Shown here one piece after another: positions 253-58,603 of a stretch of 64,000 nucleotides of DNA. The position numbers were made by a program, and so were the translations under genes. The notes beneath the pieces are model-generated. The model was not told where the DNA came from. It saw nothing but the letters and a program-made list of their open reading frames with translations, and made no database searches. Source of the stretch: Deltaproteobacteria bacterium. Lineage in GTDB: Bacteria; Desulfobacterota; Desulfarculia; Adiutricales; JAFDHD01. The stretch spans positions 64,241-128,240 of the forward strand of contig JAFDHD010000001.1 of assembly GCA_019308995.1 (NCBI GenBank), given 5' to 3'. How positions within the stretch are numbered: the first letter of the stretch is position 1; each line of letters opens with the position of its first letter.

Positions 253-329
253 TGGTCGGGACGACTGGATTTGAACCAGCGACCCCTGCGTCCCGAACGC
301 AGTGCTCTACCAGACTGAGCCACGTCCCG
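253..329 (-). tRNA. tRNA-Pro (anticodon CGG), CCA encoded
   Basis: The reverse complement folds as CGGGACG/TG/GCTC-AGTCTGGTA-GAGC/A/CTGCG-TTCGGGA-CGCAG/GGGTC/GCTGG-TTCAAAT-CCAGT/CGTCCCG/A/CCA. It has a 7-bp acceptor stem, a canonical T-loop and the anticodon loop UU-CGG-GA. Confidence 0.9.
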
Positions 330-5097: not shown

Positions 5098-5573
5098 CGG
5101 TGTATTCCTCAGAATGAATTTTTATTTATATATCTTGCCAATTGACAAGCTCTTCTTAAAGTCCAGACCGGAGATGTTATTATTTCATAATATAACCGTA
5201 GCTGAAAAGCAAGCCAGGGCCGAACCCGGAAGGTTTTTTTTATATTTACTCGCTGATAAATTGGAAAAGGGGAAAAGGCGGTCAAGTAAACCAGGATTAG
5301 AACTAAAGACTGAAGGAAAGGCATGAAGAGCGGGCCGTCAGTAGTCTTCATTTCCGTATTTGGTATGGATTGAAGGGATTTTTTGACCGAAAGAGGGAGG
5401 CTAGCCTTCCTATTGCGGCGGAGTGAAGACCGGCGATTTTGATAAGTATTTGATATTACAGCGTGAATTGTTTCACTAAAGAAACAAGTTGACAAATCCC
5501 TGTCATCTTGGATATACATCACCACGACCTTTGTAATCAACGCGCATCGGGATGCAAAGTGGATAAGGGGACC

Positions 5574-5945
5574 ATGGCTGCTTTCTTGTTGAAAGACTAC
5601 TTCTTTGTATTGATTTTTTTCCTGGTCGGGATTGCTTTTGCTGCGGTTCCTTTAATTTTAGCCGCTCTGATTACTCCCAAAACCATAGGACAAGACACGC
5701 TCAAGACTTATGAAAGCGGGATGCTTCCTTTTGGGAGCGCCTGGGTTCAATTTGGCGTGGCTTACTACCTTTTTGCCTTGATCTTTCTGGCCTTTGACGT
5801 AGATGTCCTCTTTCTCTTCCCCGTACTTATGGCTTACGGGGAGCAGTTTGTCATTCGGGACTTCATTGAATTAATTATTTTTATAGGCATTCTTAGTCTG
5901 GCCATTATTTACGCCTGGCGTGAGGGTGTTTTTGATTGGAAGTAA
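5574..5945 (+). CDS. nuoA: NADH-quinone oxidoreductase subunit A
   Basis: Three-TM NuoA/ND3-like sequence. I prefer the ATG at 5574, which is preceded by AAGGGGA, over the ORF-track start at 5508. Confidence 0.85.
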   Translation: MAAFLLKDYFFVLIFFLVGIAFAAVPLILAALITPKTIGQDTLKTYESGMLPFGSAWVQFGVAYYLFALIFLAFDVDVLFLFPVLMAYGEQFVIRDFIELIIFIGILSLAIIYAWREGVFDWK

Positions 5946-5991
5946 ATTTTAAGCTATCCTGGCATGGATCTCGCCAGGGGCCGTCTGAACT

Positions 5992-6576
5992 TTGAAAGGC
6001 AGTTTGAGCGTGACTTCTGAAAGTGAGGGAAAACTGATTCGTTCGGCCGAGCCGATCATTCACCTTACTACCCTGGAAAATATTCTCGGCGTACCGCGGG
6101 CCAGTTCGCTCATGGTCTTGACCTTCGGGCTTGCCTGCTGCGCCATTGAGATGATGGCTGCCGGCGCGGCAAAGTTTGACTGGGGGCGTTTCGGTGTCAT
6201 TCCCAGAGGTACGCCCCGGCAGGCGGACTTGATGATCATCGCCGGGACCATCTCGCGTAAGATGGCGCCGACCATTGTAACCTTATGGGAACAGATGGCC
6301 GCCCCGAAATGGGTTCTCGCCATGGGCAACTGCGCTATCTCCGGGGGGCCATTCGCTCATGAAACCCAGTATGCCATTGTCAACGGTGCGGATGAGATTG
6401 TGCCGGTTGACGTTTATGTTCCTGGCTGCCCTCCCCGGCCGGAGGGATTGATCCAAGGCATTTTAACCCTCCAGGATAAGATCACCGGCGGTCAGAAAAA
6501 CAACGTCCTTCGGAGATTTGACAGACAGCGAGGCGACAGGCGTGACTTCATCAAACGTGTCAAAAGAATTGATTGA
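5992..6576 (+). CDS. nuoB: NADH-quinone oxidoreductase subunit B
   Basis: The N2-cluster motifs are present: [19 protein letters not shown] and VPGCPPRPE. Confidence 0.9.
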
Positions 6577-7021
6577 AGAGTTGGCGCCGGTGGAGGTCCA
6601 CGATGTGGACTACACCAAAGCCGGGTCTCACGTGGACGTGACCGTAGAGCCGGACCAGGTGCACAGGGTTGCCGAATGGCTGAACGGCCGGGGGTACTTC
6701 CTGGAGGACCTTACTGCGGTGGACAGAGGAAGCCTTCGGGAGATGGTATACCGCTTTAATCAGCATATCGAGGCTCACCGCATTACTATCAGGGTCAATC
6801 TTGGTCCTGAGGACGAGGTGGATACGATCAGCGATATTTACGCTGCCGCGAACTGGCAGGAGCGGGAGTGTCACGAGTTTTTAGGGGTCAAGTTCAAGGG
6901 TCATCCAGACCTGAGGCGCCTCCTTTTACCGGAAGACGCCGACTTCTTTCCTTTGCGCAAGGATTTCAAGGTTCCGCCTGAGGCGCTGGCGCCTGAATAT
7001 TATCAGGAAGAAAATGACTGA
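6518..7021 (+). CDS. nuoC: NADH-quinone oxidoreductase subunit C
   Basis: 167-aa NuoC/30-kDa-like protein ([26 protein letters not shown]). The start is uncertain: the 59-nt overlap with nuoB suggests a downstream GTG or TTG. Confidence 0.8.
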
Positions 7022-8165
7022 AGGCAATATCACATCCCTTGACACGGAAAAAAAAGTCGCCTCCGGCCTGACCGAACAAACGTTCTGGCTGAACATGGGC
7101 CCCCAGCATCCGGCCACGCATGGGGTGCTCCGGATTGTACTTCACCTGGACGGCGAAAGGGTGGTTGAGGCTGAGCCGGTCATTGGTTATGTCCATCGCG
7201 GTCATGAAAGGATGGGCGAAACCCGCGGCTACGCGCAGTTCTTGCCCAATAACTCCCGCATGGACTACCTCGGCGCCATGACATACAACCACGCCTACTG
7301 CGCGGCCGTGGAAAAGCTGGCGGGTATCGAGGTTCCTCCCCGGGCGGAATATATTCGTGTCATCACCTCGGAATTCAACAGACTATCTTCCCACCTCCTG
7401 TTTCTCGGCGCCTATCTCATGGACCTGGGCGCCTTCACGCCGTTTCTGTATATCTGGGAGGAACGAGAAGAGATCAATGATATTTTGAATCATGTTACCG
7501 GGTCCCGGCTGACTTACTGTTACAATCGGTTTGGCGGTGTGCACAAGGATATTGACGATCAGTTCACGGCCGGGGCCCGGGCCTATATCAAACGCCAGCG
7601 CAAGCGGTTTAAGATGTATGATAAGCTGGTCACAGGCAACGTCATTTTTCAGAACCGGACCCAGGGTGTGGGCGCGATCACTCCTGAACAGGCCTTTAAT
7701 TACGGTGTGACCGGACCATGCCTCAGGGCCTGCGGCGTGGAGTACGACATTCGCAAGAAGGAGCCTTACTCGGTCTACTCCGAGGTTGAGTTTATGATCC
7801 CCACGGGCCGTAACGGCGACGCCTTTGATCGTTATGCGGTCAGGCTTGCTGAAATGGAGCAGAGCCTGCGCATCATCGAACAATGTCTCGACCGTCTGCC
7901 TCAGGGCGCATACATTAACGATAATGTTCCTCAGTATCTGGCCCCGGACCCTGGCGAGGTGTTCTTCGCCTTTGAGAGTCCGAGGGGAGAGACGAATATT
8001 TTCATAGTCAGCGACGGGAGCCGCATCCCCTACCGCATGCACTGGAAAACGCCTTCTTACACTAACCTTTCGATTTTAGCCGAACTGGTCCGCGGTCAGT
8101 TCATTGCTGATGTTATCTCAATCATGGGCAGCCTGGATCTGGTCATCCCGGAGATTGACAAATGA
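7014..8165 (+). CDS. nuoD: NADH-quinone oxidoreductase subunit D
   Basis: 383-aa NuoD/49-kDa-like protein with [12 protein letters not shown] near the N-terminus. Confidence 0.9.
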
Positions 8166-9211
8166 GCCCTGTCTCTGATCCTGGTTTCTTATTGTACTTC
8201 TTAACGCAGGCGACCGAGCGTGAGCCAGGTTTTTGGAACTGGGCTTTTTACTGGTTCAGTCAGGAGGTGGTCGTGGTGGTGGTGGGGCTGCTTCTAATCA
8301 TCGGCTTTGTGACCATCAATGCCATAGGCCTGATATACGCAGAACTTAAAATTGCGGGTCATATTCAGCGTCGTCCGGCCATGATGGAGGTGGGGTGGCA
8401 TGGATTCCTGCAGCCGGTCATGGACGCGGTCAAACTCCTGGTCAAGGAGCTGACCACGCCGACGGCCGTCAACAGACCGCTTTTTGTGGTGGCGCCGGTG
8501 ATCGTTTTCCTGCCGGTTTTAATCGCCTTTATCGTCATCCCCTTCAGCGAGCGACTCATTGTCCGGGACTTGAATTTGGGGCTGCTTTTAATCTTTGCCT
8601 TTTCCGCTCTCAACGTTATCGGAATCCTGATCGGCGGTTGGGCTTCAAACAATAAATACTCCCTCCTGGGCGCCCTGCGGTCGGTGTCTCAGAATGTGGC
8701 CTATGAGATCCCCATTCTCCTTTCGGTGATGTCCGTGGTGATCATGACCAACACCTTGAGGATGACGGAACTGGTTGCGGCTCAGGAAAAGGTCTGGTTT
8801 GTACTTGTGCAGCCGGTGGCGGCGATACTTTATTTTATTGCCGCTACGGCTGAAACGAACCGGCTGCCTTTTGATATCCCGGAGGCGGAGGGAGAACTCG
8901 TGGCTGGATTTCACTCGGAGTATTCTGGCATGCGTTTCGCCCTGTTCTTCCTGGCTGAATACAGCAACATGTTTATCGTGGCCGCAGTCTTTGCCACCCT
9001 TTTTCTCGGGGGCTGGCACGGCCCTATCTTACCGGGACCGATCTGGTTCTTGCTAAAGGTTTATGTCCTTGTCTTCCTGGTTATTGTGGCGCGGTGGACT
9101 TTTCCCCGGCTGCGTTTCGACCAGCTAATGACACTGGCCTGGAAGGTTTTAATCCCGTTCGCCCTGGCCAATCTGCTGGTCACCGCTCTGGTCATCAAGT
9201 TGATCAGGTGA
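8162..9211 (+). CDS. nuoH: NADH-quinone oxidoreductase subunit H
   Basis: Polytopic NuoH/ND1-like protein ([25 protein letters not shown]). It has an ATGA overlap with nuoD and follows nuoD directly. Confidence 0.9.
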
Positions 9212-9223
9212 GAAAGACGCTCA

Positions 9224-9688
9224 ATGAATAGTGTCATAAAATATTTTCGTAATATCATCGTAGGCGGATGGTCTCTTGTCCTGGGCTACTCTGTGACCAT
9301 CCCCGAGATCTTCAAGCCGATAATCACGGTCCAGTATCCGCGCCAGAAGCTCGAAATGGATGTGGGTTACCGGGGTCATATCGAGCTGGTCAGGCTGCCC
9401 GGGGAGGATGGTCATTTTTGCTTGGCCTGCGGCACCTGCGAACGGGCCTGTCCTTCAAAAGTGATAAAAATCCAGGGGGTCAAACCAAAAGCCGGCGCAA
9501 ATAAGGCGGGGGTGATGTATTTGATTGATTTTTCACGGTGCAGTCTGTGCGGTATTTGCGTGGATGTCTGTCCGGTGGACGCTCTTCGTCACTCCATGGC
9601 CTATGATCTTGCTTTTTACTCCAGGTGGGACAACGTCATTGATCTAGTGGCTCGTTTTAAGGAACAGCAGGAGCAGGAGAGAAGTTAA
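9224..9688 (+). CDS. nuoI: NADH-quinone oxidoreductase subunit I (2x[4Fe-4S])
   Basis: It contains two CX2CX2CX3CP motifs: CLACGTCERACP and CSLCGICVDVCP. Confidence 0.9.
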   Translation: MNSVIKYFRNIIVGGWSLVLGYSVTIPEIFKPIITVQYPRQKLEMDVGYRGHIELVRLPGEDGHFCLACGTCERACPSKVIKIQGVKPKAGANKAGVMYLIDFSRCSLCGICVDVCPVDALRHSMAYDLAFYSRWDNVIDLVARFKEQQEQERS

Positions 9689-9691
9689 GCC

Positions 9692-10255
9692 ATGGAATCT
9701 CTACTGGAGCTGATTAAACCCTTACCTGAGATTATAAAACCCGAATGGGTCGCTCAAGCCGCCTTTTATTTCATCGTCGGCGTTACTTTAGCCGGGGCGA
9801 TCTTCGCTGTATTCCTGAGGCAGATCGTCCACAACATTCTAGGATTGATTGTGGCTCTTTTTGGAGTGGCTGGCCTGTTCGTCTATTTGAATTCAGAATT
9901 CCTGGCCTTGATGCAGATTCTTATTTACATTGGAGCGGTTTGTATTGCCATCGTTTTTGCCATCATGCTGTCCGATCCGATGTACAAGAAGCCGCCCCAG
10001 CGCCGTCTGCCCCAGGTGCTCTTATCCGTGCTGCTCAGCCTGCTGATCCTGGGGGTTTTTCTATCCGTAATTACCAGGACGCCATTGAAAGCGGCGGCTG
10101 AAAGGTCAAACGATTGGTCTGTGAGCACCATTGGCAGTTTGCTTTTGACTCGCTACGCCCTCGTCTTTGAACTGATCTCTCTGGTTCTGGTGGTGGCCAT
10201 TATAGGGGCGATCGTCATCGCCGGCGAAGGCCGGAAACAGAGGTCGGCCAAGTGA
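9692..10255 (+). CDS. nuoJ: NADH-quinone oxidoreductase subunit J
   Basis: 187-aa multi-TM protein in the position expected within the nuo operon. Confidence 0.8.
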   Translation: MESLLELIKPLPEIIKPEWVAQAAFYFIVGVTLAGAIFAVFLRQIVHNILGLIVALFGVAGLFVYLNSEFLALMQILIYIGAVCIAIVFAIMLSDPMYKKPPQRRLPQVLLSVLLSLLILGVFLSVITRTPLKAAAERSNDWSVSTIGSLLLTRYALVFELISLVLVVAIIGAIVIAGEGRKQRSAK

Positions 10256-10560
10256 ACCAGCTTGAAGTTTACCTTTTTGTGGCACTGGTCATGTTCTGTC
10301 TGGGCCTGCTGGGCGTCCTGCAGCACCGCTCTCTGATCGCCATGCTCATCTCCGTGGAGTTGATGCTCAACGCCGCCAGCATTAATTTCATGGCTTTCAA
10401 CCGGTTTTTGACGCCAGAGCCGGCGGTGGGACAGATCGTGACCCTGTTTATCATCGGCACCGCCGCGGCCGAGGCCGCCGTTGGGCTATCCATCATTCTG
10501 GCTGTATTCAGGCGTTACCAGAGCATTGATGTCGAAAAGGCCCGGGAACTCAAGGGATAA
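10252..10560 (+). CDS. nuoK: NADH-quinone oxidoreductase subunit K
   Basis: 102-aa three-TM NuoK/ND4L-like protein, overlapping nuoJ by 4 nt. Confidence 0.85.
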   Translation: MNQLEVYLFVALVMFCLGLLGVLQHRSLIAMLISVELMLNAASINFMAFNRFLTPEPAVGQIVTLFIIGTAAAEAAVGLSIILAVFRRYQSIDVEKARELKG

Positions 10561-10563
10561 ATT

Positions 10564-12471
10564 ATGCTGGATGGATTAAGTTTTGAACTCTTCATGGCCA
10601 TCCTGGTCTCCGTAACGCCGGTGGTATGCTTCGGCCTGATCATGATCTTCACCCTTCGTTCCATTTCTGCTTCGGTCACGATAGGCATTATTGGTTCATT
10701 CCTGGTCTGGTTCGCCTCCCTCTATTTATTTATTCATCATTGGCCGGCTACGGAAGTTGTGATTCATCAAGCCAACTGGGTTGTCTCTGAAAGCATAAAA
10801 ATTCCTTTCGGCTTTTATTTCGATCCCCATTCTCTTCTGATGCTAATGATCGTGGCGACCATCAGCCTGGTTATCCAGATTTATTCCATGGGCTACATGG
10901 CTGGTGATCCCGGGAAGTCCCGGTATTACGCTTTTCTCTGTCTTTTCGCCTGGTCCATGATCAACCTCGTCATTGCCCCCGGTCTGCTTCAGCTTTATGT
11001 CTTCTGGGAACTTGTGGGCCTGTCTTCCTATCTGCTGATCGGGTTCTACTTTGAAAAATGGTCGGCCTCCGAAGCAGGCAAGAAGGCCTTTGTCATGACC
11101 AGGGCCGGTGACATCGGCTTCTTCATCGGTCTGGTGATGCTGATGCTGACCACCGGCCACCTTTCTGTGGCCGTATTCAGCGATGCGGCGGAGTTGAGCA
11201 AGGCTGGTCTGAGCCAAACTTTTTTGACCGTCTCGGCCATCCTGATTTTTTGCGGCGCAGTCGGGAAGTCTGCGCAGTTCCCGCTTTTGACCTGGCTTCC
11301 CGATGCCATGGAAGGTCCGACTCCGGTTTCAGCCCTGCTCCACTCTGCGACCATGGTTGCCGCCGGTGTCTATCTGACGGCCCGGGTCTTTCCTTTTTAC
11401 GAGGCCAGCGCCGCCGCCATGCTGGTGGTGCTGGTCATCGGGACCATCACCATGCTCCTCAGCTCGACCATGGCCATGACGGCCAGGGATATAAAACAGG
11501 TCTGGGCGTTTTCCACGGTCAGCCAGCTTGGGTTCATGTTCATGGGACTGGGCGCCGGCGCATATTTTGCCGGTGTTTTTCACCTGACGACTCATGCCTT
11601 TTTCAAAGCGCTTCTCTTCCTGTGCGCCGGCGTTTTCATTCATCATTTCGATACCAATGACTTCTTTGAGATGTCCAAGCTCGGAGCGCGCAAAATGCTC
11701 ATCCCCATGATCACCGTGACCATCGGTGTGTGCGCCCTGAGCGGTATCCCGCCCTTTTCCGGCTTTTTCTCCAAGGAGGCCATCATGGGCGCCCTGGCTG
11801 ACAAGCACAACAAGATCTGGCTCGTGGCCGGACTGTTAGGCGCGGCCATGACCGCTTACTATAGTTTCCGGGTCATCTTTACCATGTGGTTCCCCAAGGG
11901 CGAGTCAGTCGAGCATGGCCATGGACACGAAAGCGGCCATGGGGAAGGGCATGATGAAGGTCGCTGGGCCTGGGCCGTGGAATGGTCCATGCTCATCGTT
12001 CTACTGATATTAGCCGCCATTACGGTTGTCCTGGGCTTTTTTCATACCAGGATCGAGGTCTTTTTGACCGGACATCACGCAGAGCATGCTGGTAGTTATG
12101 TCGTTCTTGCCTTGGCCCTCCTCTGCGCCTTGGCCGGTGTGGTTCTGGCCTGGTTCGAGTTTGGAGCCAAAAAAGCCAAGCAGGTCGGCTTTCTGAGTTA
12201 CATCAAGCCGGTGGAGGCGCTGTTCTCCAACCGCTGGTACATGGACCATTTCTATCGTTGGCTTTTGGATTATGTCGCCTACGGCGTCTTTACCAATCTG
12301 TTTACACGAAATGACCGCGTGGTCATTGACGGCGGGATTGATGGTTTAACCAGATTTACCATTTCCATGGGAAGAGTCATCTCTCGCGTCCAATCCGGAC
12401 TCTTGCAGTATAACCTTTACCTCACCTTTTTTATTTTAGCCTTGATGGGACTCTACTTCCTCCTGGTTTAA
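10564..12471 (+). CDS. nuoL: NADH-quinone oxidoreductase subunit L
   Basis: 635-aa antiporter-like subunit (WLPDAMEGPTPVSALLHSATMVAAGVYL) with a His/Gly/Glu-rich insert at 11911-11961. Confidence 0.9.
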   Translation: MLDGLSFELFMAILVSVTPVVCFGLIMIFTLRSISASVTIGIIGSFLVWFASLYLFIHHWPATEVVIHQANWVVSESIKIPFGFYFDPHSLLMLMIVATISLVIQIYSMGYMAGDPGKSRYYAFLCLFAWSMINLVIAPGLLQLYVFWELVGLSSYLLIGFYFEKWSASEAGKKAFVMTRAGDIGFFIGLVMLMLTTGHLSVAVFSDAAELSKAGLSQTFLTVSAILIFCGAVGKSAQFPLLTWLPDAMEGPTPVSALLHSATMVAAGVYLTARVFPFYEASAAAMLVVLVIGTITMLLSSTMAMTARDIKQVWAFSTVSQLGFMFMGLGAGAYFAGVFHLTTHAFFKALLFLCAGVFIHHFDTNDFFEMSKLGARKMLIPMITVTIGVCALSGIPPFSGFFSKEAIMGALADKHNKIWLVAGLLGAAMTAYYSFRVIFTMWFPKGESVEHGHGHESGHGEGHDEGRWAWAVEWSMLIVLLILAAITVVLGFFHTRIEVFLTGHHAEHAGSYVVLALALLCALAGVVLAWFEFGAKKAKQVGFLSYIKPVEALFSNRWYMDHFYRWLLDYVAYGVFTNLFTRNDRVVIDGGIDGLTRFTISMGRVISRVQSGLLQYNLYLTFFILALMGLYFLLV

Positions 12472-12474
12472 GCT

Positions 12475-13962
12475 ATGACTGACTTTTACGAAATAATCCG
12501 GCAATGGCCTCTGCTGAGCGGCATTCAGGTGGTGACCGCCCTTGGTCTGCTGACCGTCATGCTCGTCCCGGAGAACCGGCCCGGGTTGATCAAGAAGTTG
12601 GCCGCCGTATTTTCCGGCGTGGACCTGTTGATCTGCATCCTCATTTTTCTGGCTTACGATCAGGAGGCAGGGGGGTTTCAGTTCGTTGAAAAGCATTTAT
12701 GGGTCAAGGCCCTGGGCATTCATTACTTCAATGCCGTGGACGGGATCAACCTGCCCATGATCCTCCTGACCGGTATTGTGCTTTTCACCGGCTGCCTGAC
12801 CATGTGGGAGTTGGAGAACCGGGTCAAGGAGTTCTTCGCTTTTTCCTTTCTCCTGGTTCTTGGCGTCTTCGGCGTCTTCATGTCCATGGACCTCTTCTTC
12901 CTTTTCGTCTATTACGACATCGCCCTCTTTCCGATGTACCCCCTGATTGCTATCTGGGGCAGCACGCGGAAGGAATACGGGGCCATGAAGCTGACGCTTT
13001 ACCTTCTGGCCGGGAGCGCGCTCATCCTGCCGGGTATCATCCTGCTTTACGTCAAGTCCGGCCTCTGGACCTTTGATATCATAGCCCTCAGCGGCGCTGA
13101 GTTCACCCCATATATCCAGAGTATCGGTTTTCTGCTCTTTTTTTTCGGTTTTGGGATCCTGGCTGGCGTCTGGCCGTTCCACACCTGGTCGCCCGTCGGC
13201 CATGTGGCCGCTCCGACTTCCGTGTCAATGATTCACGCCGGCGTGCTCATGAAACTGGGGGCCTATGGCGTCTTGCGGGTCGGAGCCTTTCTCTGCCCGG
13301 AAGGGTGGGTGCAGTGGGCCGATCTGATGGCGGTTCTGGCTGTCATAGGTATCTTGTATGGGGCCTTTGTCGGCCTGGCCCAGACAGACCTCAAGTACGT
13401 CATCGGCTACTCCTCGGTTTCTCACATGGGAATTGTGGGGTTGGGTTTATCTACGGTCACGGTGAGCGGTATGAATGGCGCCGTCTTTCAGATGTTTGCC
13501 CACGGCATCATGACCGCCCTCCTCTTCTCCTCCGTCGGTTACATCTATGACAAGACCCATACGAAAACGACTTTCGAGTTGGGAGGCATGTCCCGAAACA
13601 TGCCTGTCATTTCGGGCTTTTTTATCCTGGCCGCCCTGGCCGGCGTCGGCGTCCCATGTCTGGCCAGTTTCTGGGCCGAACTACTCGTTTTTATCTCGGC
13701 GGTTAAGGTCTATCCGGTCAGGGGGATACTGGCTATCAGCGGTTTGCTTATTTCCGCTCTGTTTATGCTGCGTGTGGTCATGAAGACTTATTACGGACCA
13801 GCCAACGAGAAATATGCCGGATTGTCCGACGTGACCGCCTGGCTGGCCACTCCCAGGGTTATCCTGGCTGGAGTCATCGTGTTTTTTGGTTTGTTCCCGT
13901 GGTTGATGTTGAATCTGATCCAGACCGCGACCGTGTCATTCCCCAAAGTCATGGGTTTTTAA
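12475..13962 (+). CDS. nuoM: NADH-quinone oxidoreductase subunit M
   Basis: 495-aa antiporter-like subunit (FHTWSPVGHVAAPTSVSMIHAGVLMKLGAYG). Confidence 0.9.
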   Translation: MTDFYEIIRQWPLLSGIQVVTALGLLTVMLVPENRPGLIKKLAAVFSGVDLLICILIFLAYDQEAGGFQFVEKHLWVKALGIHYFNAVDGINLPMILLTGIVLFTGCLTMWELENRVKEFFAFSFLLVLGVFGVFMSMDLFFLFVYYDIALFPMYPLIAIWGSTRKEYGAMKLTLYLLAGSALILPGIILLYVKSGLWTFDIIALSGAEFTPYIQSIGFLLFFFGFGILAGVWPFHTWSPVGHVAAPTSVSMIHAGVLMKLGAYGVLRVGAFLCPEGWVQWADLMAVLAVIGILYGAFVGLAQTDLKYVIGYSSVSHMGIVGLGLSTVTVSGMNGAVFQMFAHGIMTALLFSSVGYIYDKTHTKTTFELGGMSRNMPVISGFFILAALAGVGVPCLASFWAELLVFISAVKVYPVRGILAISGLLISALFMLRVVMKTYYGPANEKYAGLSDVTAWLATPRVILAGVIVFFGLFPWLMLNLIQTATVSFPKVMGF

Positions 13963-14000
13963 CTGGTTGAGGTGCTGATTTAGCCTGAAATACTGAGTTT

Positions 14001-15440
14001 GTGATGCAAGACCAAATTATTTTATTTCTTCCGGAACTGTTCTTTCTGTTGATGGCCCTGGTCCTGTTCGGGTTGACCCTTGGGTCCGGCCGGCCGAAGC
14101 CGCGGCGGGATTACTATGTAGCCCTGGTTCTCGGCGCGGTGGGATTGGTCCTCACCCTGGGTTCGATCAAGGCAGAGGGACACCTCTTTTTCCAGGCTTA
14201 CCGGCTTGACCTTTTCTCTCAGCTTTTTAAATGTTTCTTGAGCTTCGGCCTGTTTCTGGTCATCTGCATCTCCTCGCGGCTGGATGACATCGAGGAGCGG
14301 CGGCATCCTGAATTCTACCTCTTCCTGACTACTTCTACCCTGGGGATGATGCTGCTGGTCTCAGCCGTGGAACTTATCACTCTCTTCGTCGCTCTGGAAC
14401 TGTCTTCCTACTCCCTGTATATCCTGATTCCGCTCCGCAAGGGGTCTAGCCATAGCACCGAGGCTGGAATCAAATTCTTTTTCATCGGCGCCATGGCTTC
14501 CGCCACCATGCTTTTTGGTATGAGCTACCTGTACGGTGTCTGCCATACCACCTATCTGACCGGAATTCTGAGCAGCCTGCCAGCGCAGATCCATGCGCCC
14601 GGCGCTGTAATTGGAATGGTCTTGACCCTCTGCGGCCTCTTTTTCAAACTGGCTGTCTTTCCCTTTCACAATTGGGCCCCGGACGTCTATGAAGGGGGAA
14701 CTAACCAGGTTATCACCTTTATCGCCACCGCTTCCAAGCTGGCTGGTATGGCCATCCTGATTCGACTGACAGCCCTGACAAATGGAAGCAGCGCCTACCT
14801 GATCAACCTGCTGATCGTGTTATCAATGATTGGCATGACCTTCGGCAATCTGGTCGCCATCAAACAGAAAGACTTCAAACGTCTGCTGGCTTACTCCTCT
14901 ATCGCTCACGCCGGGTACATTCTTATAGGTATCCTGACCATGTCTAAACTGGGTTACAGCAGTGTGATTTATTATGCCTTAGCCTACCTGATTTTGAATT
15001 TCGCCTGTTTCATGGTTTTGATAACCACCTCTGAAAAAGGTAAAAACGTTGCGATCGAGGACTTCAACGGGTTATACAGCCGAGCGCCGCTGCTGGCCAT
15101 GACCTTGCTTCTGGGTGTGTTTGGGCTTGCCGGTCTGCCTCCGACCGGCGGGTTCACTAGCAAGTTTCTTGTTTTTATCGCGGCCATAGAAAAAGGCTAC
15201 TTTTGGCTCGTCGTCTTTGCCATGGTCAACGTAACCATCTCCCTTTACTACTATATCAACGTTGTTAAAGCCGCTTATCTCAATCCTCCGGCTGAAGGCA
15301 GTGAAAAAATAAAGATCTCAGTCCCCTTGCGCCTCCTCAATTATGTGGTCATCATCATTATCCTCTGGCTGGGGCTCTATCCCGCCACGCTTCTTGATCG
15401 GGCCAGAACAGCGGCCGAGGCTGTGTTAGCCGTGCTCTAA
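14001..15440 (+). CDS. nuoN: NADH-quinone oxidoreductase subunit N
   Basis: 479-aa antiporter-like subunit (FHNWAPDVYEGGTNQVITFIATASK). The start is either GTG 14001 or ATG 14004. Confidence 0.9.
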   Translation: MMQDQIILFLPELFFLLMALVLFGLTLGSGRPKPRRDYYVALVLGAVGLVLTLGSIKAEGHLFFQAYRLDLFSQLFKCFLSFGLFLVICISSRLDDIEERRHPEFYLFLTTSTLGMMLLVSAVELITLFVALELSSYSLYILIPLRKGSSHSTEAGIKFFFIGAMASATMLFGMSYLYGVCHTTYLTGILSSLPAQIHAPGAVIGMVLTLCGLFFKLAVFPFHNWAPDVYEGGTNQVITFIATASKLAGMAILIRLTALTNGSSAYLINLLIVLSMIGMTFGNLVAIKQKDFKRLLAYSSIAHAGYILIGILTMSKLGYSSVIYYALAYLILNFACFMVLITTSEKGKNVAIEDFNGLYSRAPLLAMTLLLGVFGLAGLPPTGGFTSKFLVFIAAIEKGYFWLVVFAMVNVTISLYYYINVVKAAYLNPPAEGSEKIKISVPLRLLNYVVIIIILWLGLYPATLLDRARTAAEAVLAVL

Positions 15441-15451
15441 GAGAGAAAATC

Positions 15452-16225
15452 ATGCTCACTTTGATGAAACGACAAGATCCTTTTACTATTAAACGCACCT
15501 GGCGTGATGATGAAATGAGAGACGCCAGGGCGCGGGGCGAGAAGTTGAATAACTCTCCAGTAACGGCCTTGACCTTCTGTCATCACCCTGAATGTGCGCG
15601 GGATATTGCAGAGCTCAAGACGACCTTCAAGAGGGAGATCGCCAGGGTCGGTTATGAGGATGTGTCGCTTTTGGACACCAAGACTATCTGTTCTGGCAGC
15701 TGCAGTCGCGGCCCATACATTGGAATGATGGGCCTGGGTCTTTTTTACCGGGGTATCAGGAAAATAGAGGTCTCGGAACTGCTTTACGAGACCTTGTTCA
15801 AGAACAAGTTTTTATTTCACCGCATTGCCCTCGATCCCTTGAAGTGCACCGATCCGCGAGTAATCTTCCATTACAAGGAAGGGGTATTGGTCACTCTGGA
15901 CCCGAAAACCTGCATGGTTGGCCTGGCTAAGTATTTATATGAGTTTAACGCCCTCGAATCATGCGGTAAGTGCACCCCTTGCCGTGCCGGATGCTTTCAT
16001 GTGACTGAAATTATGAAGGCCCTAGTGGAAGGCAGTGCCACGGCCGGCGACCTGACGCAGCTTGAGGCTTTGATCTGGTTAATGGATCAAGGGGCTTACT
16101 GCGAATTTGCTCCCAAGGTGGCTTCCTCCATTACCCTGACTCTTAAAGAGTTTCGGGAGGAATACGAGGCTCATCTTAATGGCGGCACCTGTGCCATCGC
16201 AGGATGCGGCGATTGGGGTCTGTAA
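15452..16225 (+). CDS. Fe-S protein with a NuoE-like [2Fe-2S] motif and a NuoF C-terminal-like [4Fe-4S] motif, lacking an FMN/NADH domain
   Basis: 257 aa. The N-terminal half has CHHPEC-X31-CSGSC, matching the CX4C...CX3C pattern of thioredoxin-like 2Fe-2S ferredoxins. The C-terminal half has ESCGKCTPCR-X36-C, matching the NuoF N3-cluster region. No glycine-rich flavin or NAD motif is visible. The gene sits 11 nt after nuoN and is followed by a terminator. Confidence 0.65.
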   Translation: MLTLMKRQDPFTIKRTWRDDEMRDARARGEKLNNSPVTALTFCHHPECARDIAELKTTFKREIARVGYEDVSLLDTKTICSGSCSRGPYIGMMGLGLFYRGIRKIEVSELLYETLFKNKFLFHRIALDPLKCTDPRVIFHYKEGVLVTLDPKTCMVGLAKYLYEFNALESCGKCTPCRAGCFHVTEIMKALVEGSATAGDLTQLEALIWLMDQGAYCEFAPKVASSITLTLKEFREEYEAHLNGGTCAIAGCGDWGL

Positions 16226-16300
16226 AAATTATTTACAGGCTTATTCCTGTTAAAAATATCTATTAGCGCGTCTTTGAATCAGACTTATATTTTTCATTTG

Positions 16301-16336
16301 GGGGGACGTTTTAATAGAAAGTCCCCCTCTTTTTTT
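16301..16336 (+). terminator. Rho-independent terminator closing the nuo operon
   Basis: The stem GGGGGAC (16301-16307) pairs with GTCCCCC (16321-16327), followed by TCTTTTTTT. Confidence 0.6.
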
Positions 16337-16455
16337 ATAAGCTTTTTAGCTGACGTTTCTTTGCTTGAAAAAAAAACAGCGATATGTCAACATTTAAGTA
16401 TTCAGATTTGAAAACTGATTTCCAAGAAAAATAAATTAATAAGAGGTTGCGGACA

Positions 16456-19149
16456 GTGGCTAAGAAGTTTGTTTACACCTTTGGGGGAGGCCGGGCCGAT
16501 GGGTCGGCTGAGATGAAAAATTTACTGGGGGGCAAGGGCGCTAACCTGGCCGAAATGGCCAGGATCGGTATTCCTGTTCCGGCTGGATTCACCATTACGA
16601 CCGAAGTTTGCACGGCTTATTACGAGAACAAGGGGAAGTACCCGCCTGAACTGCCGAAACAGGTCAACAAAGCTATTAAGTTTATCGAGGAACAGATGGA
16701 AACCCGCTTCGGTAATCCGGATGATCCTCTCCTGCTTTCAGTCCGCTCCGGGTCCAGGGTTTCCATGCCCGGCATGATGGATACCGTCCTGAACATCGGC
16801 CTTAATGACCGCACGGTTGAAGGTCTGATTAACAAGACCGGGAATCCCCGTTTCGTTTACGACGCCTATCGTCGCTTCGTTTCCATGTATGGGGACGTGG
16901 TCATGGGTGTCAAAGCTGAAGCCATGGAGGAGGACCCTTTTGAGGTCGTCATGCAGAAACGGAAAAACCAGAAGGGGATTACACAGGACCTTGAACTGGA
17001 TGTGGAAGACCTGAAGTGGCTGGTTAAGGAATTCAAGGCCATGATCAAACAAAGACTCAAGGTGGACTTCCCTGAGGAGCCGGAAGATCAGCTCTGGGGC
17101 GGTATCGGCGCGGTATTCAGCTCCTGGATGGTGCCGCGGGCCGTTTCTTACCGCGAGCTGCACCACATCCCTGGCGACTGGGGAACGGCTGTCAGTATCC
17201 AGGCCATGGTTTTTGGAAACATGGGCCATGATTCCGCCACAGGCGTGGCCTTTACTCGCGATCCAGCCACGGGTGAAAACTACTTTTATGGTGAGTACCT
17301 GACGAACGCTCAGGGCGAGGACGTCGTTGCGGGCATCCGAACCCCTCAACCCATTAACCGTTCAAAACCGGTAGTTGCGGATGCGGTCTCTCTCGATGAA
17401 ATCATGCCTGAAATCTATAAAGAGTTGGATGATATCCGCAGTAAACTGGAAAAGCATTACCGGGAGATGGAGGATGTCGAGTTCACCATTCAGCAAGGCA
17501 AGCTGTGGATGCTTCAGACCAGGACTGGCAAACGGACAGCCCGCGCAGCCATTAAAATTGCTCACGATATGGTCAAAGAGAACCTGATTTCCAGAGAGGA
17601 AGCCGTTGCCAGGATTGACCCGGATCAGCTCGATCAGCTCCTCCACCCCATGTTCGATCCTCAGGCTGAAAAAAAGGTGCTGGCCAAGGGTTTGCCAGCT
17701 TCCCCCGGCGCGGCCGTGGGGCAGGTTGTTTTTTCGGCGGAAGACGCAGAAGAATTACACGATAATGGTCATGAGGTCATTTTAGTTCGTATCGAAACCT
17801 CACCGGACGACATCCGGGGAATGCATGCGGCCGAAGGCATTCTGACAGCCCGCGGCGGCATGACTTCTCACGCCGCCGTGGTGGCTCGCGGTATGGGTAA
17901 GTGTTGCGTTGCCGGCGTCTCCGAGATCAATGTGGATTACGCTAAAGAAGTTTTTCATGTGGGCGACCAGACGATCAGGAAGATGGACTGGATATCGCTT
18001 GATGGTACCTTGGGCGAGGTTGTCGAGGGGAAACTCCCCACTGTTGCTCCTCAGGTGGCCGGTGATTTTGAAACGATCATGAAATGGGTGGATGAAATCC
18101 GCCGTCTGGGGGTTCGAACCAATGCTGACACGCCTCACGACGCCAAGACCGCCCTGGATTTTGGCGCAAAAGGCATCGGACTTTGTCGAACTGAGCATAT
18201 GTTCTTCGAAGGCGAACGTATTGACGCCGTGCGGCAGATGATCCTGGCCTCAGACCAGGAAGGCCGCCAGGAGGCCCTGGCTAAGATTGAGCCGATGCAG
18301 CGCCAGGATTTTGAAGGCATCTTTCGGGTCATGGATGGTCTGCCAGTGACCATTCGCACCCTTGATCCCCCTCTGCATGAGTTTCTGCCTCATACAGAGG
18401 AGGAAATGAAGGACCTGGCCGAACAGATGAAGGTCAAGGTTGAGGTTATCAAGGAGAAGGTTGACAGCCTCTATGAAGCCAATCCCATGCTCGGGCATCG
18501 CGGCTGCCGTCTGGGGATCATTTATCCTGAGATCACGGAGATGCAGGCCAGGGCCATTTTCAAGGCTGCCTGCCAGGTCATCAAGGAAGGGAAAAAGGTT
18601 TATCCTGAAATCATGATTCCGCTGGTGGGCCATGTCAACGAACTGAAACTCCAGAAAGAGATCGTGGACAAGGCGGCCGTTGAGGTTATGGAAGAGATGA
18701 ACTGCAAGATCGAATACCTGGTTGGCACCATGATCGAACTGCCTCGGGCGGCCGTAACCGCCGATCAGATTGCTCAGGTAGCTGAATTCTTTTCATTTGG
18801 GACCAATGACCTGACCCAAACCACCTTTGGCCTCTCCCGGGACGATGCCGGTAAATTCCTTCCGGACTATGTCAAACAGGGCATCCTGGAAAGGGACCCC
18901 TTTATAATTCTCGATCAGGAAGGTGTGGGCTTTCTGGTCCGCATGGGCCTGGAGAAAGGACGCCAGACAAAACCCAAGCTGAAGGTGGGCATCTGCGGCG
19001 AACACGGCGGCGAACCCAGCTCTGTGGAATTCTGCCATGAAATCGGCATGGATTATGTATCGTGTTCCCCATACCGCGTGCCTATTGCCCGCCTGGCTGC
19101 GGCCCAGGCAGTGATCAAGGAAAAACGAGAAATTGAGCGGGATGTATAG
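16456..19149 (+). CDS. ppdK: Pyruvate, phosphate dikinase
   Basis: About 897 aa with the catalytic His region [16 protein letters not shown] and the PEP-utilising C-terminal domain. I prefer the GTG at 16456, which lies 9 nt after AAGAGG, over the TTG at 16447. Confidence 0.95.
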
Positions 19150-48740: not shown

Positions 48741-48827
48741 GCCGAAGTGGTGGAATCTGGTAGACACGCCGTCTTGAGGGGGCGGTGAGCTCCGCTCGTG
48801 CGGGTTCAAATCCCGCCTTCGGCACCA
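48741..48827 (+). tRNA. tRNA-Leu (anticodon GAG), class II with a long variable arm, CCA encoded
   Basis: The GCCGAAG acceptor pairs with CTTCGGC. The anticodon stem CCGTC/GGCGG encloses the loop UU-GAG-GG. The variable arm is TGAGCTCCGCTCGTG and the T-loop is TTCAAAT. Confidence 0.9.
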
Positions 48828-52033: not shown

Positions 52034-53335
52034 ATGGCAGAACCCATTGTTTTATCTGAACAGAAAGGGGAGTTTAAGCAGAGAATCCAGCCTCTTCTGC
52101 CAGAGGGAGGGAACCTGGACCTCTGTTTTACATGCGGCACGTGCGCCAGCGGCTGCCCGGCTTCGGGTCTGGCCGACATGGATCCCAGAAAATTCTTGAG
52201 AATGGTCCTGCTGGGCATGGACGAGGAGGTTCTCACCACCCCCTGGGTCTGGATGTGCACCGGGTGTCAGAGATGTATTGCGGCCTGCCCCATGAAGATA
52301 GACATTCCCCAGCTAGTTTATCAAGCGCGAGCGAGCTGGCCGCGCGATAAGCGCCCCACAGGCATTCTCAAGTCATGCGATCTATCCGCTACCAGAGATA
52401 CTTGCAGTGCTATGGGGGCGTCCGAAGAAGACTGGAGATTTGTGGTCGAGGACGTGGCGGAAGAGGTGAGAGAAGAACAACCAGGATTCGAGCATCTTCA
52501 GGCGCCTATGGATAAGAAAGGGGCCTACTTCTTCCTTAACCAGAATTCCCGCGAACCGGTGACCGAGCCGGACGAGATGGTCCCGCTCTGGAAAATAATG
52601 GATGCTGTTGGGGCAGATTGGACTTATGGTTCGAAAGGCTGGGCCGCGGAAAATTACTGTATGTTTCTCGCGGACGACGAGGCCTGGGAACACATTTTAC
52701 GGGTCAAAGTCAAAGCGATGGAGGATTTGGGCTGTAAGGTCTGGCTCAACACTGAGTGAGGCCACGAATTCTTCGCAGTCCGGTCCGGACTGAAAAAATT
52801 CAACATCCCTTACAATTTCGAAATCAGAAGCATCATCGAATTTTACGCGCAATGGATCAGGGAGGGTAAGCTCAAGGTCAACTCCGACTGGAACAAGGAC
52901 CTGAAGATCAAGTTTACGGTTCAAGACCCCTGCCAGCTCGTCAGGAAGTCGCTGGGCGATCCGGTGGCTGATGACCTGCGGTTTGTAATTAAGACAGTGG
53001 TTGGTGAAGAGAACTTCATTGATATGACCCCGAATAAATCGAACAACTACTGCTGCGGCGGCGGCGGCGGCACGCTGCAAAGTATTTATCCTGAGGAGCG
53101 TCGGGCCTATGGCAGGGTAAAGCTGGATCAAATTTTAGCTACGGGCGCAGATTACTGCATTGCCCCTTGCCATAACTGCCATTCTCAAATCCACGATCTG
53201 CAAGAATACTATGAAGACGCTAAACACCATACGGTTCATTTGTGGACAATCATCTGCCTGGCCATGGGCATACTTGGTGAAAACGAACGAACATACCTTG
53301 CTCCCGATCTGGCAGAGTTTGGATTAGAGTCATGA
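52034..53335 (+). CDS. HdrD/GlpC/DsrK-like Fe-S oxidoreductase with a predicted selenocysteine (UGA at 52757-52759)
   Basis: One frame is open across 434 codons except for a single TGA. It contains two ferredoxin motifs (CFTCGTCASGCP and CTGCQRCIAACP) and a CCG-type cysteine-rich domain (DPC-X39-CCGGGGG...CIAPCHNC). A strong RBS, AAGGAGGG, lies upstream. Confidence 0.75.
52766..52801 (+). promoter_or_regulatory. SECIS-like hairpin
   Basis: The lower stem is GAAUU/AAUUC and the upper stem is CAGUCC/GGACUG. The apical loop is GGUCC, starting 23 nt past the UGA. Confidence 0.6.
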
Positions 53336-58570: not shown

Positions 58571-58603
58571 TTACAGAAAGAATAAGAATACTAAGACGAA
58601 CAT

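Follow-up and report, generated by a model that had tools for sequence, protein, structure and literature searches.

A flavin-less HydB-type iron–sulfur protein encoded behind nuoN: a candidate electron-entry subunit for the 11-subunit complex I of uncultured Desulfobacterota

The nuo operon and its last gene

The DNA analysed here (the window, a stretch of 64,000 nucleotides from a Deltaproteobacteria MAG) carries on its forward strand an 11-gene nuo operon (5508..15440), delimited from the ORF list and from the Pfam matches of each ORF. With the reservation that certain start codons (TTG/GTG) are uncertain, the genes identified by Pfam, all on the plus strand, are nuoA (5508-5945), nuoB (5992-6576), nuoC (6518-7021), nuoD (7014-8165), nuoH (8162-9211), nuoI (9224-9688), nuoJ (9692-10255), nuoK (10252-10560), nuoL (10564-12471), nuoM (12475-13962) and nuoN (14001-15440). 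Pfam searches over the ORFs revealed no nuoE, nuoF or nuoG in the nuo operon of the window.

The final gene of this nuoABCDHIJKLMN operon is an ORF of 257 amino acids (15452..16225, plus strand), which is separated by 11 nt from the end of nuoN at 15440. Pfam, equivalog models and PDB alignments assign its product to the Bfu-B/HydB type of Fe–S proteins, in a flavin-less form. In GenBank the identical protein is deposited from a Deltaproteobacteria MAG as ‘hypothetical protein JRI95_00400’ (MBW2060001.1). The operon is closed by an intrinsic terminator (16300..16336, plus strand), in which a U-run comes after a G/C stem of 8 bp, with a folding energy of -17.2 kcal/mol (z -2.87). The position of the gene, 11 nt past nuoN and ahead of the terminator, is the one given in a preliminary description made from the nucleotide letters.

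Within the 64-kb window neither a ferredoxin nor a flavodoxin gene was found, and no NuoG-like or NfnA-like gene adjoins the gene of the 257-aa protein. A GltD-like gene with Fer4_20 and Pyr_redox_2 domains is located 44 kb away (60271-61884), beside a GntR regulator in a separate unit. This gene was considered as the missing partner and set aside: its product shares 35% identity with the partner protein found in one subfamily of relatives (subfamily C, see below), over the GltD module only, and the N-terminal [2Fe-2S] and molybdopterin-fold parts of the NuoG type are missing from it. As a lead it is weak.

Domain architecture and cluster motifs

The polypeptide begins with a basic leader (aa 1-35, pI 10.2), kept in subfamily A only, which includes a helix at aa 10-27 (15479..15532, plus strand) according to AF2 models and the alignment. 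A thioredoxin-like [2Fe-2S] domain follows at aa 36-128 (15557..15835, plus strand), as determined by comparing a profile with the PDB. Its proposed ligands form the motif C43-x4-C48-x31-C80-x3-C84, in agreement with the CHHPEC-X31-CSGSC pattern noticed earlier. A short junction (aa 129-146; 15836..15889, plus strand), defined by two-segment alignments to 8a6t_B and 7p5h_B, leads to a NuoF-type N3 [4Fe-4S] four-helix bundle (aa 147-240; 15890..16171, plus strand), recognised by PF10589 and by Foldseek. The proposed ligands are C171-x2-C174-x2-C177 and, further downstream, C217. The spacing of 39 residues between C177 and C217 is what we take to be the canonical NuoF N3 spacing; the N3 motif had been recognised correctly before, with a slight miscount of this distance as 36. 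Between these two cysteines lies C181, which is non-conserved. The chain ends with H241-x5-C247-x4-C252 (16172..16207, plus strand), placed by residue mapping onto 7t2r_B.

The sole Pfam match of the protein is PF10589 (NADH_4Fe-4S) at aa 158-241, with an E-value of 7.7e-22 and coverage of 84 of the 85 profile positions. Neither Complex1_51K (PF01512, FMN/NADH binding) nor SLBB (PF10531) gave a Pfam match at E<=10, and these profile searches bear out the earlier proposal that an FMN/NAD domain is absent. In the PDB alignments, only the last β-strand of the SLBB region, ahead of the N3 domain, is aligned. NuoF equivalog models (TIGR01959) match the protein only over positions 312-409 of 410; the score of 76.3 bits lies below the cut-off of 558.65. 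A C-terminal 2x[4Fe-4S] ferredoxin-type domain (B3/B4) was also looked for: no Fer4 match was obtained, and the protein stops five residues past C252. Pfam and equivalog models showed no similarity to known Fe–S assembly families.

Both halves of the protein are related most closely to HydB. The best PDB sequence matches are 8a6t_B (E 5.8e-26) and 7t2r_B (E 2.7e-24). The alignment to 8a6t_B comprises two segments, in which query residues 77-129 correspond to 79-131 and query residues 144-252 to 461-569. Hence about 330 HydB residues, which form the FMN/NAD Rossmann-like domain and the SLBB domain, are swapped for about 14, and a HydB counterpart is missing only for about aa 132-141. A profile of the N-terminal domain matched the N-terminal domain of HydB (7t2r_B residues 6-94, E 7.7e-18; 7p5h_B, E 1.4e-12) and, at weaker scores, Aquifex Fd4 (1f37, E 2.3e-9) and NuoE/NDUFV2 (E 2.5e-4 to 0.6). 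PF01257 did not match the N-terminal domain of the window protein at E<=10 and matched that of 8 of 16 relatives weakly (best E 0.0012). The preliminary description had read the protein as a combination of NuoE and the NuoF C-terminus. Its division into a thioredoxin-like [2Fe-2S] half and an N3 half stands, while the better fit is to proteins of the HydB/NfnB/StnB type, NuoE being a much weaker match.

AF2 predicts a compact fold (pLDDT 92, pTM 0.87), and in the deep-alignment model the junction reaches a pLDDT of about 86. A β-α-β-β-β-α order is predicted for the N-terminal domain. Foldseek superimposes the predicted C-terminal domain on NuoF and HydB with an rmsd of 1.4-2.0 Å over ~96-100 residues. 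The protein as a whole is near-neutral (pI 6.97), its N-terminal half being basic and its N3 domain acidic; this charge pattern does not discriminate an acidic carrier from a basic docking adaptor.

A third metal site

A third conserved metal site, overlooked in the preliminary description, is formed by C154 (nt 15911-15913) together with H241, C247 and C252. These residues align to C438, H525, C531 and C536 of 7t2r_B and correspond to the Bfu-type Cys3His site. The equivalent site was modelled with Zn2+ in Thermotoga maritima HydB, whereas for HydB of A. mobile it was modelled as the [2Fe-2S] cluster B2 (PMC8880783, PMC9304861, PMC9499530), and it is reported to be missing from Nqo1 (PMC9499530). 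By analogy of sequence, the site in the window protein would hold either Zn or a second [2Fe-2S] cluster. Among 85 relatives, it is retained as C-H-C-C in 43, and in each of the 17 sequences that have a serine at position 154 its residues are lost together.

Conservation and selection

The eight cluster cysteines are invariant across 14 close relatives and likewise across a set of 56 relatives. The same domain junction is common to about 60 clusters distributed over seven subfamilies. Values of dN range from 0.12 to 0.30 and omega (dN/dS) from about 0.02 to 0.16, comparable to those of nuoC, nuoD, nuoI and nuoN; dS is saturated and these values are therefore rough.

Relatives and their gene neighbourhoods

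Members of these subfamilies are rare and known solely from MAGs and metagenomes. In JGI annotation, relatives are labelled ‘(2Fe-2S) ferredoxin’; the 257-aa protein itself is listed in databases as ‘hypothetical’. Placement directly after nuoN recurs in 10 of the 11 distinct relatives examined (subfamilies A-E), down to ~30% identity, and the synteny with 11-subunit nuo operons expected at the outset is thus found.

In subfamilies C, D and E, a gene for a large A-type partner is located immediately downstream of the relative. The subfamily C partner is an NfnA/StnC-like NADPH flavoprotein, with matches to NfnA (9bov_A, E 1.7e-172) and StnC (8oh5_C, E 3.5e-168), and that of subfamily D is FdsA/NuoG-like. 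Subfamily D also carries a full-length HydB-like gene just upstream of nuoA, so that there the flavin-less protein adds to a flavoprotein and does not replace it. No adjoining A-type partner was found at nine places of five subfamily A/B proteins (subfamily A: window, L001, L002-L004, L086, L088, L089; subfamily B: L005). With no NuoG- or NfnA-like gene adjoining in the window and in these two subfamilies, the canonical partner surface of the N3 domain is left unaccounted for. An 80-aa C-terminal extension in subfamily B was inspected as a possible remnant of an NfnA-like gene and showed no similarity.

Subfamily G, at about 28% identity, lies away from nuo, in the company of the Wood–Ljungdahl genes FTHFS, FolD, CODH and CCG-protein. 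The module is therefore not intrinsically Nuo-specific.

Two scans addressed the spread of the family. A search of GTDB species representatives for the SCGKCTPC motif contained no true member among the 80 matches listed; since this motif is common to ordinary NuoF and HydB, the scan is uninformative on the spread in named genomes. A metagenome scan with the subfamily-A junction alignment returned four loci, two of which lie on contigs of relatives known before. A 218-aa protein with PF10589 only (P0024), which resembled a second short form, is actually a frameshift fragment of hoxF in a Hox hydrogenase cluster.

A proposed role in electron input

Directly observed are the domain content, the conserved ligands, the purifying selection, the place in the operon, the synteny and, in the sister clades, the partner genes. 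Which cofactors are bound, whether the protein joins Nuo, what donates to it and which way electrons flow are matters that we infer. The preliminary description had suggested an electron-input wire or adaptor, and such a role agrees with the observations. With slightly better than even confidence, we consider the 257-aa protein to be a B-subunit descendant, incapable of flavin and NAD binding, which acts as an Fe–S adaptor feeding the Q-module of Nuo.

The ancestor of the protein would be a Bfu-type B subunit of the ‘long NuoF’ kind (HydB/NfnB/StnB), from which the core with FMN/NAD(H) and SLBB domains, together with the 2x[4Fe-4S] domain at the C-terminus, would have been lost in frame. What remains would be a single compact unit comprising the thioredoxin-like [2Fe-2S] domain, the N3-type [4Fe-4S] domain and the Cys3His site with Zn or a second [2Fe-2S] cluster. 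Co-produced with the 11-subunit Nuo, this unit would most likely be seated at the cytoplasmic tip. Single electrons from a low-potential donor, either a ferredoxin or a partner dehydrogenase subunit, could enter the 257-aa protein and reach menaquinone by way of NuoI and NuoB; the reverse flow is conceivable as well. In sister lineages, the N3-type cluster would touch the N-terminal [2Fe-2S] domain of the partner, in the manner of NuoF and NuoG. The partner genes beside the subfamily C, D and E relatives suggest that the ‘wire’ probably acts by way of a large A-type subunit, or arose alongside one, whose gene is non-adjacent in the window.

Several other explanations have to be weighed against this adaptor. 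The gene has the appearance of a longer one with a large internal deletion, as expected for a decaying nuoF or hydB remnant without present function. Such decay is effectively refuted by the conservation data: the junction is shared across the seven subfamilies, the cluster ligands are invariant, omega is like that of core nuo genes and a compact fold is predicted with confidence. The protein could also be a soluble, dedicated two-cluster ‘ferredoxin’, co-expressed with Nuo and shuttling electrons between a cytoplasmic oxidoreductase and the exposed NuoI cluster. The ferredoxin labels in JGI annotation, the portable module suggested by subfamily G with its Wood–Ljungdahl/CODH genes and the want of an adjoining docking partner gene in subfamilies A and B speak in favour of it. 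We nevertheless find a soluble carrier rather unlikely. With 257 aa and a pI of 6.97 (4.9-7.0 in subfamily A), the protein is unlike the small acidic ferredoxins, and the N3 domain is a fixed subunit–subunit interface in every solved structure. Moreover, the last position in nuo, kept at ~30-40% identity, and the pairing with NuoG/NfnA-like proteins point to a stoichiometric member of the complex.

Alternatively, the 257-aa protein may be one half of a two-subunit input module whose A-type partner, NfnA-like (NADPH/FAD) or NuoG/FdsA-like, is encoded elsewhere, resulting in a 13-subunit complex I linked to NAD(P)H or formate instead of a 12-subunit enzyme linked to ferredoxin. Such a partner lies immediately downstream in subfamilies C, D and E, a genome may carry its BfuA homologs at another locus (PMC9304861), and the resemblance of the distant GltD-like protein to a module of the subfamily-C partner can be read in the same sense. 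However, none of the nine subfamily A/B places has an adjoining partner, the operon is closed by its terminator, and the GltD-like protein lacks the NuoG-type parts and belongs to a separate unit; we hold a distantly encoded partner to be unlikely. A role outside the electron path, in the maturation, stability or redox sensing of Nuo (such as Fe–S delivery, or that of a structural cap comparable to Nqo15 of Thermus), appears very improbable. It would be compatible with the peripheral thioredoxin-like domain of HydB in HydABCSL, which is said to stabilise a neighbouring subunit (PMC8880783), and with the structural Zn assigned to the Cys3His site of T. maritima HydB (PMC9499530). Against it, the full ligand sets of the two redox clusters are invariant whereas some relatives do without the Cys3His site, redox partner genes are paired with the protein, and there is no likeness to known Fe–S assembly families.

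Returning to the adaptor, a broader proposal can be made tentatively and with considerable doubt. The family might constitute a previously unrecognised input module of complex I, in which a Bfu-B subunit that lost its flavin turns a bifurcating B/A pair into an Fe–S conduit on the 11-subunit core, with NADPH-linked (C), NuoG/FdsA-linked (D, E) or ferredoxin-docking (A, B) variants. If so, subfamily C with its NfnA-like partner would be an NADPH:menaquinone-oxidoreductase form of complex I, and subfamilies D and E with a NuoG/FdsA-like partner would represent a different 13-subunit enzyme. The lone protein of subfamilies A and B would then be a cluster-bearing docking site for ferredoxin, the missing donor interface of the NuoEFG-less complex I in these Desulfobacterota.

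Relevance to the donor question

The donor question for the 11-subunit complex I of anaerobes has stood since at least 2011. One study reported no common partner protein for the NuoEFG-less complex (PMC3144371), and its electron donor is still called unknown (PMC11238625, PMC12142623, PMC9386147). The 257-aa protein is a concrete candidate for the electron-entry subunit in a single group of uncultured Desulfobacterota. The sister operons with NfnA- or NuoG-like partners suggest that parts of bifurcating enzymes have been recycled into respiratory input modules. Our literature searches found no paper describing a flavin-less HydB-type protein after nuoN, and domain-based surveys of NuoF and BfuB miss flavin-less derivatives by design. 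In one such survey, BfuB is defined by IPR011538, IPR019554, IPR019575 and IPR017896 in combination (PMC9304861); the flavin-less proteins were left out because flavin, SLBB and ferredoxin domains were required.

Comparison with known systems

Judged by its sequence, the 257-aa protein looks like a HydB-type ‘long NuoF’ minus the flavin/NADH core. HydB, NfnB and StnB (of HydABC/HydABCSL, NfnABC and StnABC) share with it the thioredoxin-like [2Fe-2S] domain, the N3-type bundle and the Cys3His site in identical order. In addition, they possess three domains that are absent here: FMN/NAD(H) (the catalytic/bifurcating site), SLBB and, at the C-terminus, 2x[4Fe-4S]. Lacking the FMN/NAD(H) domain, the 257-aa protein can therefore neither oxidise NADH nor bifurcate electrons. 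In the 257-aa protein the two remaining domains are predicted to be packed directly together, an arrangement found in no PDB chain. The genetic context differs too: HydB-type genes are housed in hyd/nfn clusters, and the present gene sits after nuoN instead. A further likeness is that the neighbouring gene in subfamily C encodes a close NfnA/StnC homolog.

NuoF/Nqo1/NDUFV1 (the 51-kDa subunit) has the C-terminal N3 domain (PF10589) in common with the 257-aa protein, with an rmsd of about 1.7-2 Å. NuoF has the FMN/NADH domain, which is absent from the 257-aa protein, and has neither the N-terminal [2Fe-2S] domain nor, as reported for Nqo1 (PMC9499530), the Cys3His site. NuoE/NDUFV2/HydC and Aquifex Fd4 share the CX4C...CX3C pattern and the thioredoxin-like fold with the N-terminal half; the 257-aa protein lacks the N-terminal helical domain of NuoE and carries a fused N3 domain.

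Alternative inputs of complex I include FpoF/FqoF (F420H2), the cyanobacterial NdhS/V/O (ferredoxin docking) and Campylobacter Cj1574c/Cj1575c (flavodoxin). These families are unrelated to the 257-aa protein and none is a flavin-less NuoF/HydB derivative with two Fe–S clusters of its own, but the concept is the same, namely an 11-subunit core with a lineage-specific accessory as electron entry (see also PMC3144371, PMC11238625). Schut et al. 2022 (PMC9304861) proposed, for Geobacter and other organisms, a ‘Nuo-Bfu’ complex I whose input module is likewise Bfu-derived and not the canonical NuoEFG. In Nuo-Bfu, full FMN-bearing BfuABC genes lie midway in a cluster of 14 genes, whereas the present cluster has 11 genes and, behind its nuoN, one B-type gene of the flavin-less form.

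Gene and operon structure

The window protein is encoded by a 257-aa ORF at 15452-16225 (+) and is identical to GenBank MBW2060001.1, a 'hypothetical protein' from a Deltaproteobacteria MAG. Its gene is the twelfth and final member of a cluster in which Pfam assigns nuoA, B, C, D, H, I, J, K, L, M and N, and no nuoE, F or G was found among the cluster genes. The preliminary description had placed it last in the nuo operon. This position is confirmed both by the 11 nt which separate it from the nuoN stop at 15440 and by a terminator at 16300-16336, a G/C-rich hairpin with a U-run (-17.2 kcal/mol, z -2.9). Directly 3′ of the terminator, 220 nt past the stop codon of the window protein, starts a pyruvate phosphate dikinase gene (16447-19149, +), which has the same place in loci L001, L002/L003 and L088 of subfamily A, to which the window protein belongs. 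Although this synteny is conserved, the dikinase gene is probably transcribed as a unit of its own. Rfam matched two tRNA genes in the window (256-329, -; 48741-48824, +) and nothing beyond them.

Cluster motifs and domain content

Two sets of cysteines are present as previously reported: an N-terminal CX4C...CX3C motif (C43-x4-C48-x31-C80-x3-C84) and a CxxCxxC motif resembling the N3 [4Fe-4S] site of NuoF (C171-x2-C174-x2-C177, fourth ligand C217). The distance between C177 and the fourth cysteine, first given as 36 residues, is in fact 39, the normal spacing in NuoF N3. The only Pfam match is PF10589, the NuoF iron-sulfur region (aa 158-241, E 7.7e-22). Of the families initially suggested for profile checks, NADH_4Fe-4S (PF10589) is recovered, and 2Fe-2S_thioredx yields a weak match at best. 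Against the NCBIfam NuoF equivalogs, just the last ~100 model positions match (76 bits versus a 559-bit cut-off). The absence of an FMN/NAD domain, originally judged by eye, holds: neither a flavin/NAD domain nor SLBB was matched by Pfam, even at E<=10. Judged from its sequence, the window protein cannot bind FMN or NAD(H).

A third metal site has to be considered. In T. maritima HydB, the site adjoining the N3 motif is a Cys3His Zn2+ site, which is reported to be absent from Nqo1 (PMC9499530). The corresponding site in A. mobile HydB harbors a five-ligand [2Fe-2S] cluster called 'B2' (PMC8880783; PMC9304861). In an alignment with PDB sequences, the ligands C438, H525, C531 and C536 correspond to C154, H241, C247 and C252 of the window protein. 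The fifth B2 ligand, C476, is replaced by V192; this position is Thr in about two-thirds of the BfuB sequences, the B subunits of bifurcating enzymes (PMC9304861). Among 85 relatives, C-H-C-C is kept in 43 and C-H-C-x in 17, and in the 17 sequences with Ser at position 154, the His and the CX4C are missing in every case. The ligands are therefore kept or lost as a set, as expected of a single metal site, and the site ties the ancestry of the protein to bifurcating-type B subunits.

Descent from HydB-type subunits

The best PDB-sequence matches are likewise Bfu-type B subunits: HydB (8a6t_B, E 5.8e-26; 7t2r_B; 7p5h_B), NfnB and StnB, with complex I NuoF at E 1e-15 or weaker. Residues 77-129 and 144-252 are collinear with HydB 79-131 and 461-569, which implies that about 330 HydB residues, comprising the FMN/NAD(H) and SLBB core, were swapped for about 14. 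Also missing is the 2x[4Fe-4S] domain that HydB carries at its C terminus. By itself, a profile of the N-terminal domain matches the N-terminal thioredoxin-like [2Fe-2S] domain of HydB at E 7.7e-18 and Aquifex Fd4 at 2.3e-9, versus merely 2.5e-4 to 0.6 for NuoE/NDUFV2. Given this domain content and these matches, the protein is best viewed as a 'long NuoF' of the HydB type that has lost its catalytic core, rather than as NuoE joined to a NuoF tail.

Family, constraint and predicted fold

A first homolog search returned 14 full-length relatives (39-78% identity), all from Deltaproteobacteria/Desulfarculus MAGs and none with an assigned protein name. Thirteen of them were aligned (A1); the fourteenth, P0011, is a partial copy that matches the window protein at 100% identity. 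When 1.84 billion representatives were searched exhaustively with a profile, 27 proteins reached E<1e-30, and about 30 representatives showed the same contiguous architecture. A profile-seeded search extended this to about 60 clusters of 229-331 aa, labelled '(2Fe-2S) ferredoxin' by JGI and with a generic domain name by NCBI. In relatives of 400-650 aa (P0033-P0051, P0097), the extra length consists only of low-complexity Ala/Pro/Glu-rich tails and poly-Lys ends. Most of these long-tailed proteins lack the Cys3His site, which is kept in P0034, P0044, P0047 and P0097; in subfamily D, the poly-Lys tail at the end of the protein is shorter.

Across a 56-sequence alignment, none of the eight cluster cysteines varies. 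Within subfamily A, dN (0.12-0.30) and omega (0.02-0.16), which are rough values because dS is saturated, are similar to those of nuoC, D, I and N. AlphaFold2 reached pLDDT 92 and pTM 0.87 on the 56-sequence alignment (75 and 0.52 on a shallow one), with predicted order in the two domains, their junction and the C-terminal stretch. By Foldseek, the C-terminal domain superimposes on NuoF/HydB at 1.4-2 A, full-length HydB alignments give an rmsd of ~17 A, and no PDB chain carries both domains in a matching relative position (TMq <=0.41). For this reason, the way in which the two cluster domains pack directly against each other, as predicted without cofactors, is specific to this family.

Genomic context and partner genes

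The proposed synteny with 11-subunit nuo operons was checked in the contexts of 11 distinct relatives and upheld; in 10 of them, the gene follows nuoN. The gene directly follows nuoN of nuoABCDHIJKLMN in subfamily A (L001, L002-L004, L086, L088, L089). It also follows nuoN in subfamily B (L005, from a Desulfarculus MAG, 39% identity, other genes downstream), subfamily C (40%; L090, L093, L094) and subfamily D (31-36%; L091, L096). In subfamily E, the frameshift-ridden assembly L095 has antiporter-subunit fragments 5′ of the gene. Subfamily G (229-238 aa, ~28% identity) is the exception: at L092 3780-4484 the gene adjoins no nuo genes and neighbours formate-THF ligase, FolD, a CODH/prismane-type protein and a CCG protein, which suggests that the two-domain module also serves Wood-Ljungdahl-linked redox enzymes. 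The gene thus has a conserved place at the end of nuo operons that lack nuoEFG.

The nuo operons of subfamilies B and C end with an ORF of ~52 aa (L005 10972-11130; L090 14216-14377; 54% identity, E 1e-21), which overlaps the preceding stop codon and encodes a hydrophobic C-terminal segment. It may be an extra small membrane subunit and was found neither in the window nor in the subfamily A or D loci.

What follows the flavin-less gene differs between subfamilies. In subfamily C, its stop codon is overlapped by a gene for a 1160-aa protein with a NuoG-type N-terminal [2Fe-2S] domain, a GltD-type Fer4_20/FAD/NAD(P)H module, 2x[4Fe-4S] and a molybdopterin fold. Over its full length, this protein is homologous to NfnA (9bov_A, E 1.7e-172) and StnC (8oh5_C, E 3.5e-168), which are the large, NADPH-binding subunits in Bfu-type transhydrogenases. 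NfnA and StnC pair with NfnB and StnB, exactly the subunit type from which the window protein derives. Subfamilies D and E have an FdsA/NuoG-like gene in this place. At L091 (D), a full-length 617-aa HydB-like gene (1-70) ends just 5′ of nuoA and a NuoG/FdsA-like gene lies at 10944-13259; the order hydB-like, nuoA-N, flavin-less gene, nuoG-like is an unusual split of input-module genes.

No related partner gene follows in subfamilies A and B, and no gene for a NuoE/F/G-like protein, a ferredoxin or a flavodoxin is present in the 64-kb window. Its only distant candidate is a GltD-like Fer4_20/Pyr_redox_2 protein (60271-61884, +), which shares 35% identity with the subfamily C partner over the GltD module. 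The gene overlaps that of a FAD_binding_2/Succ_DH_flav_C protein (58604-60274, +), and both follow a GntR/UTRA regulator gene, the three together spanning 57815-61884 (+). Elsewhere in the window, an HdrD/GlpC-like gene (4Fe-4S dicluster and CCG domain; 52034-53335, +) forms one frame with a single in-frame TGA at 52757-52759 ('WLNTE*GHEFF'), followed by a stable hairpin (-16.1 kcal/mol, z -2.85); the TGA may encode selenocysteine, with the hairpin as a putative SECIS-like element.

A proposed role in the peripheral arm

In structures of complex I, HydABC and NfnABC, electrons leave the B/F subunit through the N3-type cluster and enter the A/G subunit at its N-terminal [2Fe-2S] domain. On balance, we lean towards the window protein being an Fe-S adaptor that is bound as a subunit to the peripheral arm. 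Its site in subfamilies C-E would be the one that NuoF normally takes, on the NfnA-like or NuoG-like subunit; the proteins of subfamilies A and B would either dock directly on the NuoI/NuoCD surface or have a partner encoded elsewhere. Electrons would probably come from ferredoxin or another one-electron carrier of low potential, or else from an attached dehydrogenase, and their flow could be reversible. The preliminary observation is confirmed and its interpretation partly supported.

Other roles are conceivable for a protein that closes the operon. It is unlikely to be a soluble dedicated carrier, and somewhat less likely still to form half a module with a partner encoded elsewhere, the GltD-like protein being the sole distant candidate in the window. 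The protein keeps two complete redox-cluster ligand sets and the Cys3His site, and it is under purifying selection. We consider a maturation or structural factor improbable and a dead remnant extremely so.

Relation to known input systems of complex I

Schut et al. proposed 'Nuo-Bfu' enzymes with intact BfuABC inside 14-gene clusters, from a search which demanded flavin, SLBB and ferredoxin domains (PMC9304861); these requirements made the flavin-less family invisible to it. Moparthi and Hagerhall did not find a common partner for the 11-subunit enzymes (PMC3144371), and recent papers still call the electron donor unknown (PMC11238625; PMC9386147; PMC12142623). Our full-text literature search, of incomplete coverage and hence absence of evidence only, returned no description of the window protein. 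To the preliminary description, the analysis adds a Bfu-B origin, a third site, a compact predicted fold, a wider family and a set of partner genes. The protein offers a concrete handle on the long-standing donor question, in lineages that are rare and uncultured. It is homologous to BfuB and NuoF, but the flavin/NAD domain which defines both is missing here. By analogy, its role would be comparable to that of FpoF, NdhS/V/O and Campylobacter Cj1574c/75c, which are accessory input subunits of complex I.
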